From NCBI GenBank assembly GCA_017472305.1, contig JAFUQP010000007.1:5272-69271 (forward strand): a stretch of DNA of 64,000 nucleotides, written 5' to 3'. Numbering within the stretch: the first letter of the stretch is position 1; every line of letters starts with the position of its first letter. Below the pieces are notes generated by a model that did not search any database, had not been told where the DNA came from, and worked only from the letters and a program-made list of their open reading frames with translations. Shown piece after piece: positions 26,611-37,922 of this stretch. This stretch comes from Clostridia bacterium. GTDB taxonomy: Bacteria > Bacillota > Clostridia > Oscillospirales > CAG-272. A program made the position numbers and the translations under genes.

Positions 26611-26707
26611 AATTACTTCTCTCTTTTTTAGTTAATTAGATTTTAACATAAATTTACAGAAAAGTAAATAGCATTTAGAAATTTTAAGCATTTTGAAGGG
26701 AGTTTGT

Positions 26708-27880
26708 ATGAGCGACTTTTTAGCTAAACTTTTTATTAAGGATTACCAAAACCGTGGCAGCGGCCGCGTTCGCGAGAAATACGGAACACTTGCGTCTGTT
26801 GTCGGAGTTGTTACTAACTTTATCCTCGCGGGAATTAAGCTTCTTGCAGGGCTTCTGTCGGCATCGGTTGCTATTATTGCAGACGCGCTGAACAATCTAT
26901 CGGATGCCGGCTCGTCGGTTATTACCTACCTATCCTTTAAGGCGGCGGCGAAGCCTGCCGACAAGGACCACCCGTTCGGACACGCGAGAATGGAATACAT
27001 TGCCTCTATGGTGGTGTCCTTCCTTATTCTTCTTGTCGGTTTTGAGCTGCTTATGGACTCGGGAAAAACAGTTCTGGGCTTAAGCGAGGCGCAAAGAACC
27101 GAAATAACTCTCGTTACAATTATTATTCTCTCGGCATCTGTTCTGCTGAAGCTGTGGCTCGCCTTCTTCTACCTCGACGTAGCTAAGAAAATCGACTCCT
27201 CGGTTGTTAAGGCATCGGCTATGGATTCGCTCTCGGACTGCGTATCAACTCTTGCGGTCCTTGTTTCTTCTATAGTTATCTACTTCACCAACTGGATTTT
27301 ACTTGATGCTATCGTCGGACTCGGCGTTTCGCTCCTTATACTGTTCGCAGGCGGAAAGATACTTAACGAAACTAAAAACGCGCTTCTCGGTGAGGCTCCC
27401 GTCGAGGAAACCGTAACGAAAATTTACAAAACCGTCGAGGACTACCCCGATATTCTCGGAGTCCACGACCTGCTCGTTCATAACTACGGACCGCACACCT
27501 TTATTGCATCATTCCATGCAGAGGTTGACGGAAAGAAGGATATTTATCTGCTTCACGATATGATTGACAACGTCGAGCGAGAGATTAAAGAGAGGCACGG
27601 AATACAGTGTACAATACACCTTGACCCGATTGTAACCGACGACGAAATTGTAACCGAGCTTCAAGGCTTCCTTCGCAATATTCTCATAGAAAACGATATT
27701 GATTACAGTGTTCACGATTTCAGAACTGTCGTGGGTACAACTCACACAAATCTGATTTTTGATATCGTCCTGCCCTTCGATGCAAAAATAAAGCCTCAGG
27801 AGCTTACCTCGCTCATACAGGAGAAGGTACACAAGGCTCGTGAGGACGTGTTCTGCGTAATCACGGTTGACAGGGGTTAA
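26708..27880 (+). CDS. Cation diffusion facilitator family transporter
   Basis: Six TM helices with the CDF motifs IIADALNNLSD and DSLSD, plus a C-terminal cytoplasmic domain. ATG 26708 follows an AAGGGAG SD. Confidence 0.9.
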   Translation: MSDFLAKLFIKDYQNRGSGRVREKYGTLASVVGVVTNFILAGIKLLAGLLSASVAIIADALNNLSDAGSSVITYLSFKAAAKPADKDHPFGHARMEYIASMVVSFLILLVGFELLMDSGKTVLGLSEAQRTEITLVTIIILSASVLLKLWLAFFYLDVAKKIDSSVVKASAMDSLSDCVSTLAVLVSSIVIYFTNWILLDAIVGLGVSLLILFAGGKILNETKNALLGEAPVEETVTKIYKTVEDYPDILGVHDLLVHNYGPHTFIASFHAEVDGKKDIYLLHDMIDNVEREIKERHGIQCTIHLDPIVTDDEIVTELQGFLRNILIENDIDYSVHDFRTVVGTTHTNLIFDIVLPFDAKIKPQELTSLIQEKVHKAREDVFCVITVDRG

Positions 27881-27924
27881 TGCCCGAATTTGCGTCAGCT
27901 GCAACAAAAAACAATTGACCGAAG

Positions 27925-28383
27925 AAAAAGGAAGATGCACAGATAGCGTGATACTCTTAACGGAGTATCACGCATCGAGATAAATCCCGTATGGGATTTT
28001 CGATATGTTGCTAACGCAACTCGATATGCCTTCGGCTCGATATGTTTGCTTCACAAACGAGGGGATTTATCTCATATCGAATTGACGCACAGCGGCAATA
28101 TATCGAGCTTGAGCGGCTGGGGTTCCCCTAAGCGAAGAATGAGCTTTGGGGGTTCGCAGCGTAGCGAAAGCATATCGAGTCAACGGAGTTGACATATCGA
28201 CAGAAGAAAAAATGAGAGCAAGAATAGAAGGATTTTTCTCCTTTTACTCTTGCTATTTCTGTTTGTAATAAGGGTTTGGGCATAGCCCATTTGCGTTTGA
28301 CTAGTCAAATGCGATGCTCGCACTTTGCCCAAAGTGTAAAATTCTCCGCTAAGGACATCACCCTATTTTGCATCTTCCTTTTT
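27925..28383. ncRNA. Hairpin-dense non-coding element bounded by a 15-bp perfect inverted repeat (large structured RNA or MITE-like element; strand unresolved)
   Basis: AAAAAGGAAGATGCA (27925-27939) is the reverse complement of TGCATCTTCCTTTTT (28369-28383). At least 14 consecutive hairpins lie between them. There is no ORF of 60 aa or more. The element sits between the 3' ends of two convergent genes. Confidence 0.45.
28000..28200. repeat. Array of the 8-mer TCGATATG (three forward copies) and its complement CATATCGA (three exact copies plus one 7/8 copy)
   Basis: Forward copies are at 28000-07, 28021-28 and 28037-44. Reverse copies are at 28073-80, 28171-78 and 28193-200, with TATATCGA at 28099-106. 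A short hairpin lies in each interval. Confidence 0.85.
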
Positions 28384-28460
28384 TGATATTCAAGCAATAG
28401 TCACGGTAAGATTAAAGCGCTCAAAAAGACTCGGGGACAGCAGAAAGGAGATTTCTGCCC

Positions 28461-29414
28461 TTAAATATCTACGCGATTCAGAATTTTTCCATCAACGAAA
28501 GTCGAAATATTATCTGCTATAACCGATATGCATCTGCACCTTGCCTCATACGAGCCCCAGGCTGCGTGAGGAGTGAGAATAACGTTATCAAGCTTCATAA
28601 TCGAGGTGTAGGGGTGCGACTCACAGAAGGGCTCGGTAGAATATACGTCGGAGCCGAAGGCGGCAATTCTTCCTTCCCTGACAGCCTCTGCGACTGCCGC
28701 CTCGTCAAGCACCGCGCCGCGTGCCTCGTTTACGAGAATTACCTCGGGCTTCATTAACTTAAGTCGCTCGCGCGAGATTATACCGCGTGTGCCGTCGTTC
28801 AAGGGACAGTGAAGCGTTATTATATCACTCTCACGGCAGAGGGTATCAACGTCCACGCACTCGACGCCATCAACAGGTGTTCTCTTATTCACTATTACCC
28901 TCGCGCCGAGGCTCTCGGCTACCCTGCCGACCGCCTTGCCTATATTTCCGTAGCCGATAATACCCCATGTCTTTCCTGCAATCTCGTGGTATACGGGAAT
29001 TAATCTGTTCGGTACGCCGAGGCGAGTATATTCACCGTCGGTTACAAACCTACGGTATTCAAAAAGGTGCGAGGCAAGAGCAAGCACAGTTGAAAGAGTG
29101 AATTGTGCCACACTCTCGGTTGAATAGGCAGGAACGTTACACACCGCTACTCCGTGCCGTCTTGCGGCATTCAAATCGATATTATCGTATCCCGTCGCAA
29201 AAACGCAAATAAGCTTCAGCGCCTTTGCATAGGAGAGTACCCTTTCGGTTATCTTAATCTTGTTGAGAACTATAACCTCGGCGTCACGTATGCGCTCTTC
29301 CATCTCACAGTCCGTGGTATTAGCGTATATTTGCAGCTCACCGAAGCCCGATAAATAGTCCTTTATCGGCGTATCCTCGCCAAGAGATGCGCTGTCGAGT
29401 ACCTTGATAAGCAT
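28461..29414 (-). CDS. D-isomer-specific 2-hydroxyacid dehydrogenase (glycerate/hydroxypyruvate reductase-like)
   Basis: NAD-binding motif GIIGYGNIGKAVG and the catalytic R..E..H arrangement. 317 aa. Confidence 0.9.
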   Translation of the reverse strand: MLIKVLDSASLGEDTPIKDYLSGFGELQIYANTTDCEMEERIRDAEVIVLNKIKITERVLSYAKALKLICVFATGYDNIDLNAARRHGVAVCNVPAYSTESVAQFTLSTVLALASHLFEYRRFVTDGEYTRLGVPNRLIPVYHEIAGKTWGIIGYGNIGKAVGRVAESLGARVIVNKRTPVDGVECVDVDTLCRESDIITLHCPLNDGTRGIISRERLKLMKPEVILVNEARGAVLDEAAVAEAVREGRIAAFGSDVYSTEPFCESHPYTSIMKLDNVILTPHAAWGSYEARCRCISVIADNISTFVDGKILNRVDI

Positions 29415-36521: not shown

Positions 36522-37922
36522 CTACTTTACAAACGCGCAGAATGCCTCGTAGGTAGAATAAACGTCTGCCTTGGATACTACCTCGTAGGGCGCGTGCATC
36601 GAGATAACCGGCACACCAAGGTCAACGGTTTCGATATTATGGTTAGCGATATACATAGCAACCGTTCCGCCGCCGCCCGCATCAACCTTACCAAGCTCGG
36701 CAGTCTGCCAGATAACGCCATTATCGCGGAAGAGCTTTCTTATAAAGCCTACGAATTCGGCAGATGCGTCGTTTGTCGAGGACTTTCCGCGTGCACCCGT
36801 GTACTTACTCATAGTAGTACCGCAGGAAATCATAGCGCTGTTGCGCCTTTCGTAAACGTCGGCAAAATTCGGGTCGTAGCAAGCGGTAACGTCGGCGCTT
36901 AAGCACTTGCTCTTGCTTCTTACGACAACCTCGTTCTTGCCAAGCGAGCGTGAAATCTCCTTCATTACGTCAACGAGAATGTCAGACTGCATTCCGGTAA
37001 CGCCAACCGAGCCAATCTCCTCCTTGTCGGCAAGCACTACCATTACGGTGTGCTTTGTGTCGCCGTTATCGAGAAGCGCGGTTACTGCGGGATAGGAGCA
37101 TACTCTGTCGTCGTGGCCGTATGCCGCGATAAGCGCTCTGTCAAAGCCGATATCCCTTGCCTTGAAGGCAGGAACGAGCGAAAGCTCCGCAGAGAGGAAG
37201 TCCTCCTCGGTAACACCGTACTTTTCGTTAAGAATAGAGAGGGCTGTAAGCTTGATTTTGTCGCTTACGTCCTTATCGTCGTAAGGAAGTCCGCCGATAA
37301 GAATATTGAGGCTCTCGCCGCTGATTGCCGAGGAGAGGGGCTCAGCGCCCTGCTTCTGTCCAAGATGAGGAAGAAGGTCGTTGATATAGAATACGGGGTC
37401 GGAGTCGTCCTCACCGATATTAACCTCAACAACACTTCCGTCAGCTGTAACCATAACGCCGTGAAGCGCAAGAGGAATTGCAGTCCACTGATACTTCTTG
37501 ACGCCGCCGTAGTAGTGAGTCTTAAGGAAGCCCATTCCCGCCTCCTCGTACATAGGAACCTGCTTTAAGTCAAGACGGGGAGAGTCGATATGCGCCGCAA
37601 GAATTCTGATGCCGTCAGACTCGAGGTCATTCTCACCGACCTTGAAGAGTATAAGGCTCTTGCCGTGCTGGTTGAGGTATTTCTTATCTCCTACCTTAAG
37701 CTCCTCGCCGAGCTTATACTCGGTATAGCCCTTTGCCTCTGCCATTTTAATAGCGTATGCCGTTGCCTCGCGCTCGGTTTTAGCCGCGTCGAGAAATGCT
37801 GCGTATCCAACGTTGTAGTCAAATATAGCCTTAACCTTTTCGGGAGTTGCCTCCTCGAAGATATTTTTCTTTTTGTAGGAAAGCTTATCGAAGATTTCCT
37901 GTCCAATGCTCTTTTCGCTCAT
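36522..37922 (-). CDS. M18-family aminopeptidase
   Basis: AAHIDSPRLDLK and the metal-binding pattern of M18 aminopeptidases. ATG 37922 has an AGAAGGA SD, and the 12-codon upstream extension would overlap coaE. Confidence 0.8.
   Translation of the reverse strand: MSEKSIGQEIFDKLSYKKKNIFEEATPEKVKAIFDYNVGYAAFLDAAKTEREATAYAIKMAEAKGYTEYKLGEELKVGDKKYLNQHGKSLILFKVGENDLESDGIRILAAHIDSPRLDLKQVPMYEEAGMGFLKTHYYGGVKKYQWTAIPLALHGVMVTADGSVVEVNIGEDDSDPVFYINDLLPHLGQKQGAEPLSSAISGESLNILIGGLPYDDKDVSDKIKLTALSILNEKYGVTEEDFLSAELSLVPAFKARDIGFDRALIAAYGHDDRVCSYPAVTALLDNGDTKHTVMVVLADKEEIGSVGVTGMQSDILVDVMKEISRSLGKNEVVVRSKSKCLSADVTACYDPNFADVYERRNSAMISCGTTMSKYTGARGKSSTNDASAEFVGFIRKLFRDNGVIWQTAELGKVDAGGGGTVAMYIANHNIETVDLGVPVISMHAPYEVVSKADVYSTYEAFCAFVK

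Follow-up and report, generated by a model that had tools for sequence, protein, structure and literature searches.

The Locus and Its Array

The stretch analysed here, referred to throughout as the window, comprises 64,000 nucleotides of contig JAFUQP010000007.1 from a Clostridia bacterium of the Oscillospirales and contains, in a 580-bp intergenic gap between two convergent genes, an array of the heptamer TCGATAT and its reverse complement ATATCGA interspersed with small hairpins (27946-28200). This array is a class-1 (TCGATAT) orphan copy of a dispersed repeat family that apparently has not been described previously; it is an orphan in the sense that no gene or gene remnant of the PF05635/TIGR02436 protein family, which accompanies other copies, was found in the 64-kb window. 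The features of the locus, with the labels used below, are as follows.

26693-27880, + strand: cation-efflux (cation diffusion facilitator, CDF) gene, left neighbour of the array
27925-27939, no strand assigned: outer inverted repeat (15 nt, perfect), left arm (AAAAAGGAAGATGCA)
27946-27973, + strand: P0, a perfect flanking hairpin with 11-bp arms, directly 5' of the first core
27975-27999, + strand: F0*, the degenerate core TCGAGAT (27975-27981), followed by the hairpin A (AAATCCC), loop, A' (GGGATTT)
28000-28058, + strand: forward (F) arm cores, all TCGATAT: F1 28000-28006, F2 28021-28027, F3 28037-28043
Within the F-arm, + strand: hairpins closed by G...C, one after each core: hp1 28007-28020, hp2 28028-28036, hp3 28044-28058
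28059-28073, + strand: centre, GAG plus A'' (GGGATTTATCTC)
28074-28200, + strand: reverse (R) arm cores, all ATATCGA: R1 28074-28080, R2 28100-28106, R3 28172-28178, R4 28194-28200
Within the R-arm, + strand: hairpins hpX 28081-28099, hpY 28107-28171, hpZ 28179-28193
28217-28254, no strand assigned: terminator-like hairpin with 16-bp arms, followed by T-rich sequence on both strands
28255-28362, + strand: conserved tail of the window-type unit, ending in an inverted copy of the P0 region
28369-28383, no strand assigned: right arm of the 15-nt outer inverted repeat (TGCATCTTCCTTTTT)
28461-29414, - strand: D-2-hydroxyacid dehydrogenase gene, right neighbour of the array

A sequence-only reading of this DNA had pointed to an 8-mer, TCGATATG, with three exact forward copies starting at 28000, 28021 and 28037 on the + strand, three exact reverse copies (CATATCGA) starting at 28073, 28171 and 28193, and a variant (TATATCGA) at 28099. 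These positions are correct, as are the start-to-start spacings (21, 16, 36, 26, 72 and 22 nt), and the decayed forward copy that had been suspected is real and corresponds to the TCGAGAT core at 27975-27981. Both strands of the window hold 10 exact copies of the 8-mer, compared to 2.42 +/- 1.56 (maximum 8) per whole window in 100 dinucleotide shuffles, and six of the 10 indeed fall inside 201 bp. Only one further copy had been reported; it exists, with coordinates that are really 37585-37592, and is one of four outside the cluster (23261, 33742, 37585 and 46571), a number so small that the 8-mer is not enriched elsewhere in the window. The arrangement with all forward copies 5' of the reverse copies is non-random, as had been proposed, and each interval carries a hairpin; the two stem-loops assigned to the 72-nt interval are in fact one long branched hairpin, hpY, which holds a 46-nt insertion specific to the window and missing from the closest relatives.

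The true conserved word is the 7-mer TCGATAT/ATATCGA and not the 8-mer: the eighth position, a G in forward and a C in reverse copies, belongs to the neighbouring hairpin, which it closes by pairing with the base that precedes the next core. In the centre, the 12 nt of A'' are 100% complementary to F0* plus A (27977-27988).

The unit to which the array belongs is larger than the array itself. The segment 27967-28384 aligns at ~75% identity with two loci of unrelated flanks (L082 and L059), the 108-nt tail (28255-28362) being ~75% identical in the same two, and the hairpin at 28217-28254 is kept together with the array at L082, L059, L106 and L037; a simple terminator scan did not list this hairpin among its sites. 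The 15-nt arms are part of an imperfect ~45-bp inverted repeat (27925-27968 vs 28340-28383) that encloses a 459-bp unit. A TGCATCT motif in this outer repeat is similar to the -35-side block (T/G)GCATCTAAA found beside elements of other genomes, and the tail contains the palindrome TTTGAC-TAG-TCAAA and a GGGC-ATA-GCCC hairpin. The P0 hairpin is present in other family members with a different sequence, often as a terminator-like hairpin or just 3' of a TATAAT box; in the window no convincing promoter was seen before P0. Comparison of the intergenic region against the window by BLAST revealed no second copy, and Rfam 15 gave no match at gathering score and no rRNA match in the window, the hits obtained in 27700-28600 with E values of up to 10 being only noise (E >= 8) and all outside the array.

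A Dispersed Family of Clostridial Repeats

Contigs representing one genome per species were scanned with the pattern TCGATATG-N5-30-TCGATATG-N5-30-TCGATATG, which returned at least 120 loci vs ~3 matches expected by chance (our own estimate, assuming uniform base composition). Among the matches listed, most are metagenome-assembled genomes (MAGs) of gut/rumen Clostridia, often with several loci per MAG, and the hosts include Christensenellales, Oscillospiraceae, Acutalibacteraceae and 'Eubacteriales'. Seven loci (L090, L099, L018, L078, L075, L013 and L025) were discarded as false members, as they are unrelated tandem repeats of other phyla that contain TCGATATG by chance, examples being one with 17 copies at a ~28-nt period (a Bacilli MAG) and another with 11 copies (a Lysobacterales MAG). 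Thirty viral contigs also match the pattern, with only weak or partial matches to the profile described below, and a phage origin was rejected.

A profile built from 11 copies and applied to the pattern-scan loci delimited, among the matches listed, 62 elements in 59 loci, of which 42 are full and 20 are half elements. The usual composition is four forward plus four reverse cores, FFFFRRRR being the commonest order (21 elements), followed by FFFFRRR and FFFF (8 each). In the canonical order, P0 precedes F0 with the A:A' hairpin; next come F1-F3, with a hairpin behind each of them, then CGAG and A'', and lastly R1-R4 separated by hairpins. Elements occur singly in either orientation, as convergent or divergent inverted pairs and as tandem copies; divergent versions consist of an R-arm, a short spacer and an F-arm. 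At L029, L034, L088 and L104 the R-arm/F-arm order is the same as at L080 (described below), the arms being 12-33 nt apart, and tandem duplications of whole elements or of ~396-bp F-arm units are found at L024 (540-1560), L063 (4687-5257) and L021 (2082-2497).

Paralogous copies within a genome are 77-88% identical, and their likeness does not extend beyond the element borders, the TCGATAT...ATATCGA termini marking its exact limits. In half elements the terminal inverted repeats measure 13-14 bp. Inspection of the flanks revealed no target-site duplication, and no transposase, REP-associated tyrosine transposase (RAYT; REP stands for repetitive extragenic palindromic sequence) or similar gene recurs in ~0.9 Mb of flanking sequence. 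At L044 the arms lie 0.9-2 kb apart and enclose a cyclophilin gene and open reading frames (ORFs) without Pfam match; in the absence of a transposase, this locus was rejected as an autonomous element.

With respect to their surroundings, the upstream gene is co-directional with the element in 38/53 cases (p = 0.002), with the element at a median of 76 nt past the stop of such a gene, and the downstream gene is co-directional in 36/53 (p = 0.013), both counts being based on crude ORF calls. The downstream genes (UPF0029, DD-carboxypeptidase, PfkB, RF2, GH38, ROK, CDF and MATE) are functionally unrelated, and the idea of a riboswitch or regulon was rejected on this basis. Syntenic conservation was not observed, since 0/80 metagenome loci with relatives of the efflux gene (<=62% identity) carry an element. 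Two short-read contigs that include the neighbouring dehydrogenase gene end at the edge of the window unit, as is expected of repeats, and contigs of the same strain are identical or broken at the repeat; other contigs that start or end inside or at the edge of an element are L202 and L203 (Logan contigs), L059, L082 and L102. A full-text literature search for the 8-mer returned chance primer matches only.

Free Hairpins and Invariant Cores

The 285 spacers of the 62 elements evidence a strong preference for pairing. At least four contiguous Watson-Crick pairs extend from the spacer ends in 76% of them vs 0.6% of shuffled spacers, with a mean perfect stem of 4.5 bp vs 0.4 bp. As many as 206 of the spacer sequences are distinct, meaning that the ability to pair is kept while the sequence is free; the closing pair, G-C in most spacers, is elsewhere A-T or T-A, both bases having changed together. 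The length is broad (7-40 nt, mostly 9-21), neither constant nor in helical phase.

In an RNAalifold alignment of 31 members, 26 of the 45 consensus pairs show double-sided changes. These sit in the hairpins and in A:A', the stem of which changed on both sides in 11-14 of the 31 sequences, the cores contributing single cells at the first position. Where F0 has G in place of T, as in the window and at L059, L037 and L082, A'' has changed correspondingly in the centre, from A to C (TATCT). Except for position 1 the cores are invariant, even between paralogues that are 77-88% identical. As such old paralogues still keep both cores and hairpins, each copy may be taken as being under purifying selection on these two features.

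Linkage to PF05635/TIGR02436 Genes

The sole recurrent neighbour of the elements encodes a protein of 115-120 amino acids (aa) that scores 79.6 bits with PF05635 and 89.5 bits with TIGR02436, is annotated as 'four helix bundle protein' or '23S rRNA-intervening sequence protein', and has 2RLD (five chains) as its closest solved relative. According to a review, PF05635 is related to Avd, the accessory protein of diversity-generating retroelements (DGRs) (PMC10053308). The gene starts 15-30 nt past R4 at L019, L081, L071, L080 and L039, and gene callers read through the arrays to give N-terminally extended PF05635 predictions of 160-200 aa.

A protein search from L019 gave 6,515 clusters at 90% identity and a second search gave 7,996; the best 120 of the 6,515 clusters are all at least 84% identical and most of them lie on contigs <2 kb. 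For two of the proteins from the L019 search, a full element separates the PF05635 gene from an rlmD-like methyltransferase gene at every locus with enough upstream sequence, and a second array lies 3' of the PF05635 gene at those P0084 loci in which downstream sequence was examined (L244, L246 and L248-L251). Considering the three clades obtained by protein search together with L071, an array is found directly upstream at every PF05635 locus with enough upstream sequence, the exception being L056.

The heptamer is not the same in all cases. The same architecture occurs with the words GCGATAT, ATGAATT, GCTAAAT, AGTGATA and ATGTAAT in addition to TCGATAT, and for each of these six words the reverse copies match the forward ones as exact complements. 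The paralogue at L071 (64% identical) has GCGATAT/ATATCGC upstream, that at L021 (52%) has GCTAAAT/ATTTAGC and that at L054 (44%) has ATGTAAT/ATTACAT. Extended to the clades, TCGATAT accompanies the proteins of L019, L081 and L234-L251, GCGATAT that of L071, GCTAAAT those of L021 and L252-L262, and ATGTAAT those of L054 and L264-L272. Relatives of the L021 protein have GCTAAAT arrays in three different genomic contexts on independent contigs; these arrays lie behind an extended -10 promoter (TGGTATAAT or TGGTAGAAT) plus a P0 hairpin, the promoter at L259 being TTGATT-17-TATAAT. Relatives of the L054 protein have ATGTAAT-type arrays, each just 3' of a different tRNA gene. Other words have orphan arrays as well, namely ATGAATT (five loci, one of them on a viral contig), GCTAAAT (L033) and AGTGATA (L112), and different classes are found side by side within one genome. 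In the viral case, L227 (9594-9736), a predicted viral contig of IMG/VR carries the class-2 (ATGAATT/AATTCAT) array in its complete form.

Within an array, the eight cores share one word, and the word differs according to the protein clade, which suggests a common sequence-specific reader that would have co-evolved with the word. The adjacent PF05635 protein is the obvious candidate for this reader, as far as can be inferred from its position and from the pairing of words with clades. Linked descent covers part of this pattern; it does not cover the uniformity within each array.

The genomic contexts of the PF05635 loci differ, and no reverse transcriptase or transposase was found near them; their neighbours include the rlmD-like methyltransferase, an epimerase, DegV, peptidases, PFL, tRNA genes and small non-Pfam ORFs. 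The class-1 gene and its array lie right behind a (uracil-5)-methyltransferase-like gene (PF05958) in several species (L019, L234-L237 and L244-L245), a synteny with a 23S rRNA/tRNA-modifying enzyme that merits mention given that the PF05635 family was first seen in rRNA intervening sequences (IVSs). PF05635 genes located immediately 3' of tRNA genes plus a terminator (L264-L272 and L054 in class 5, L257 in class 3) involve at least four different tRNA genes and may reflect integration beside tRNA genes or co-transcription. At L080 (1861-2392) the gene is enclosed by an R-arm upstream and an F-arm downstream, and these arms could close a stem around the ORF. Behind the PF05635 gene, each clade has a conserved ORF of small size (107-161 aa) with no Pfam match, which abuts or overlaps the PF05635 stop in 3/4 loci and may be a second component of the system; its positions are as follows.

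L234, 2860-3342: small ORF after PF05635
L252, 2372-2743: small ORF after PF05635
L259, 2369-2692: small ORF after PF05635
L264, 1309-1794: small ORF after PF05635

Arrays of heptamers and hairpins do not feature in the papers retrieved for PF05635/TIGR02436, as judged by title and abstract.

Folding and the Choice between RNA and DNA

Both strands of the array fold far better than shuffled controls (z = -8.4 and -10.2), as is to be expected of any set of inverted repeats. The RNAalifold consensus is a nested rod in which F0 pairs with R3, F1 with R2 and F3 with R1, with hairpins at the junctions. The minimum free energy (MFE) structure of the window itself adopts another register (F2:R3 and F3:R2), and the nested scheme of the sequence-only reading represents a third one. 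The register is ambiguous because all the core helices are identical in sequence. The RNA rod that had been envisaged retains its nested core:core pairing in the consensus, its conserved hairpins and the exact forward/reverse complementarity in six classes, and receives no support from covariation of forward and reverse copies, the cores of the class not changing together as the two strands of a helix would. At the only core position that varies, the T-to-G change has its counterpart at L071 and is uncompensated at L063 and L068 (U-C at predicted pairs), and F0 and R4 are unlike at this position (G against T) at L033, L061 and L101.

The evidence on the nature of the nucleic acid is divided. 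Leaning toward RNA are the promoters that classes 1-3 have in front of P0 and the bias in orientation relative to neighbouring genes, and the position of the class-5 promoter and the purely Watson-Crick stems lean toward DNA.

A Proposed Reading of the Folded Element by a Cognate Protein, and the Alternatives

Based on the available evidence, we favour, with a probability of about 45%, a reading in which the family, a dispersed element of the REP type in its organisation, would fold in single-stranded form in vivo and would be read by a cognate PF05635 protein. The element would be active when single-stranded; in the window this would most likely be as RNA, as the 3' part of a read-through transcript of the cation-efflux gene ending at the 28217-28254 hairpin. 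The spacers would fold into hairpins, and the heptamers would be displayed either in a row or, with forward and reverse copies paired, as a stack of four-way junctions, the identical heptamers being the putative recognition sites of the PF05635 protein. Gene-linked copies may then mediate autoregulation, and orphan copies may offer the protein additional sites, or may derive from a gene-linked element as its copies or solo remnants. In a broader formulation, which we regard as tentative and rather doubtful, PF05635 proteins would be sequence-specific readers of heptamers presented on hairpin or four-way-junction scaffolds, with one code per paralogue, control of their own gene through the upstream array and recognition of dozens of orphan arrays over the chromosome, that of the window among them.

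Several observations weigh against the favoured reading. Among ~1300 stem pairs there are 8 G:T and 5 A:C, and as G:T is no commoner than A:C the stems carry no RNA-strand signature; neither are classical RNA tetraloops enriched in the spacer loops. In class 5 a promoter (TTGATT-17-TATACT) lies between the array and the ribosome-binding site, that is, 3' of the array, so the array need not be part of that mRNA, and in classes 1-3 the -10 box abuts P0, which therefore could not fully form in that RNA; both facts favour a role at the DNA level. The PF05635 gene at L056 has an array downstream only and none upstream, the window lacks a PF05635 gene or remnant over its 64 kb, and the unrelated genes downstream of the orphans argue against a simple regulon. 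Four clades underlie the correspondence of heptamer and protein, and linked descent could account for part of it. In addition, we know of no demonstration of sequence-specific binding by a PF05635 protein nor of any role of the family outside DGRs.

Possible as well, and to be taken seriously even if improbable on balance, is a selfish DNA element of the type of REP sequences and their paired form (REPINs) or of miniature inverted-repeat transposable elements (MITEs). In this case the units would be single-stranded DNA sites for a mobilising enzyme acting in trans from another place in the genome (HUH/RAYT-like or another transposase), with the PF05635 gene as cargo or accessory and with orphans that would arise by transposition. 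The multiple extragenic copies per genome with unrelated neighbours, the occurrence of singles in both orientations, inverted pairs and tandems, the sharp borders of similarity at the termini, the half elements with 13-14-bp terminal inverted repeats and the breaking of assemblies at the copies are all consistent with it, and the same is true of the stems, purely Watson-Crick and without strand asymmetry, and of a location mostly just downstream of genes, as in REPs (PMC3733652). However, no transposase or RAYT recurs in the ~0.9 Mb of flanks, no target-site duplication was seen in those inspected, and the 80 efflux-relative loci (<=62% identity) provided no pair of occupied and empty sites. 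Moreover, tandem duplicates aside, the copies compared within genomes are old (77-88%) and do not represent recent bursts, and conservation is confined to the tag, which is neither GTAG nor CGTC, the palindromes being free in sequence, unlike those of REPs.

It is unlikely that the family is a self-contained structured non-coding RNA, that is, a rod of 7-9-bp helices with four-way junctions and no dedicated protein, serving for instance as a stabilising structure in a 3' or 5' untranslated region or as a small RNA. The folding of both strands beyond shuffles, the nested consensus, the upstream promoter boxes, the terminator-like hairpin downstream of the window type and the orientation bias are what such an RNA would be expected to show, but eight identical helix strands are needless for a pure structure and their redundancy makes the pairing ambiguous, the core changes at L063, L068, L033, L061 and L101 are uncompensated, the stems have no G:U excess, half elements with forward cores only are maintained and no Rfam family matches. 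Besides, the change of heptamer along with the clade of the neighbouring protein would be left unexplained.

Double-stranded operator sites (iterons) for a DNA-binding regulator with incidental spacer hairpins, which the sequence-only reading had offered as its alternative on account of the spacings, are the least probable of these explanations and very unlikely, given that spacers of 7 to 40 nt (mostly 9-21) have no helical phasing, that there would be no reason for 76% of them to be selected as perfect palindromes of unrelated sequence and that many copies are distant from promoters, as is that of the window between convergent genes, in spite of the single word arranged in both orientations around a centre, the stems made up purely of Watson-Crick pairs and the arrays at PF05635 promoters, where class 5 has the array upstream of the -35 and classes 1-3 have it downstream of the -10.

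Relation to Known Repeats and Systems

REPs are defined by an unpaired GTAG or CGTC tag at one end of a palindrome (PMC3733652). The resemblance of the present family to REPs, bacterial interspersed mosaic elements (BIMEs) and REPINs with their RAYTs (PMC3733652, PMC3116915) is extensive: short extragenic palindromic units with a conserved unpaired tag are present many times in a genome, for the most part between convergent genes or shortly after the end of a gene, as single units, inverted pairs or clusters able to form larger folds; the repeats flank one cognate gene, and several repeat classes coexist per genome. In contrast, the tag is here a class-specific 7-mer, 206/285 spacers are distinct whereas the 20-40-bp REP palindrome is conserved among copies, and three to four units run in one direction before the orientation is reversed. 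The linked gene encodes a four-helix-bundle protein of 115-120 aa (PF05635) and not a Y1/HUH transposase, RAYTs having been sought in the flanks only, and the hosts are Clostridia, which are not among the main REP hosts surveyed (PMC3733652).

MITEs combine terminal inverted repeats with a target-site duplication; here the termini TCGATAT...ATATCGA are inverted, and no target-site duplication was seen on inspection of the flanks. No autonomous relative with a transposase between the same ends was found, PF05635 being the only recurrent gene, and distant arms flank ordinary genes such as that of the cyclophilin at L044.

The BOX elements of pneumococci are modular (boxA-boxB(n)-boxC) intergenic repeats of Firmicutes, variable in copy number, predicted to fold strongly and scattered among unrelated genes. 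The present family shares this modular, scattered and strongly folding character, a likeness of general features and not of compared sequences, but in BOX the modules are conserved in sequence and here the heptamer alone is conserved. To our knowledge BOX has neither sequence or module homology to the heptamer arrays nor a linked protein gene. Heptad operators of ribbon-helix-helix proteins and plasmid centromere iterons are also 7-bp words, direct or inverted at a promoter, which are read cooperatively by a small autoregulated protein. The short 7-bp words in both orientations at a promoter are common to both; unlike the arrays, such operators are contiguous or phased, lack hairpin spacers, are read by another protein fold and are not dispersed over the chromosome.

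The protein family PF05635 is shared with the 23S rRNA IVSs and with the Avd protein of DGRs (PMC10053308), and the bracketing of the PF05635 gene by inverted arms at L080 resembles that of an IVS ORF by the excised stem. The elements described here differ from the former in being located between protein-coding or tRNA genes and not inside rRNA genes, and from the latter in that neither a reverse transcriptase nor a template repeat is found near the PF05635 genes. Altogether, this is a new family of 'tagged palindromic' dispersed repeats with a REP/RAYT-like organisation, another grammar and another linked gene.

Implications

The arrays break metagenome assemblies and mislead ORF callers, and they are in this respect a practical source of annotation and assembly artefacts. 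If the interpretation favoured here is true, a large class of intergenic repeats that has gone unannotated in uncultured Clostridia of gut and rumen gains a grammar (a heptamer, a free hairpin, and four forward plus four reverse units), and the very abundant PF05635 family gains a concrete partner together with a natural specificity swap (TCGATAT/GCTAAAT/ATGTAAT). The stack of identical short helices with perfect four-way junctions would be, in addition, an unusual natural architecture for a nucleic acid. Should PF05635 proteins act as heptamer readers, they would constitute a new system of protein-nucleic acid recognition with the organisation of REP-RAYT and without the transposase; should the elements be merely selfish repeats, they would still represent a new REP-like family in a phylum in which few have been described.

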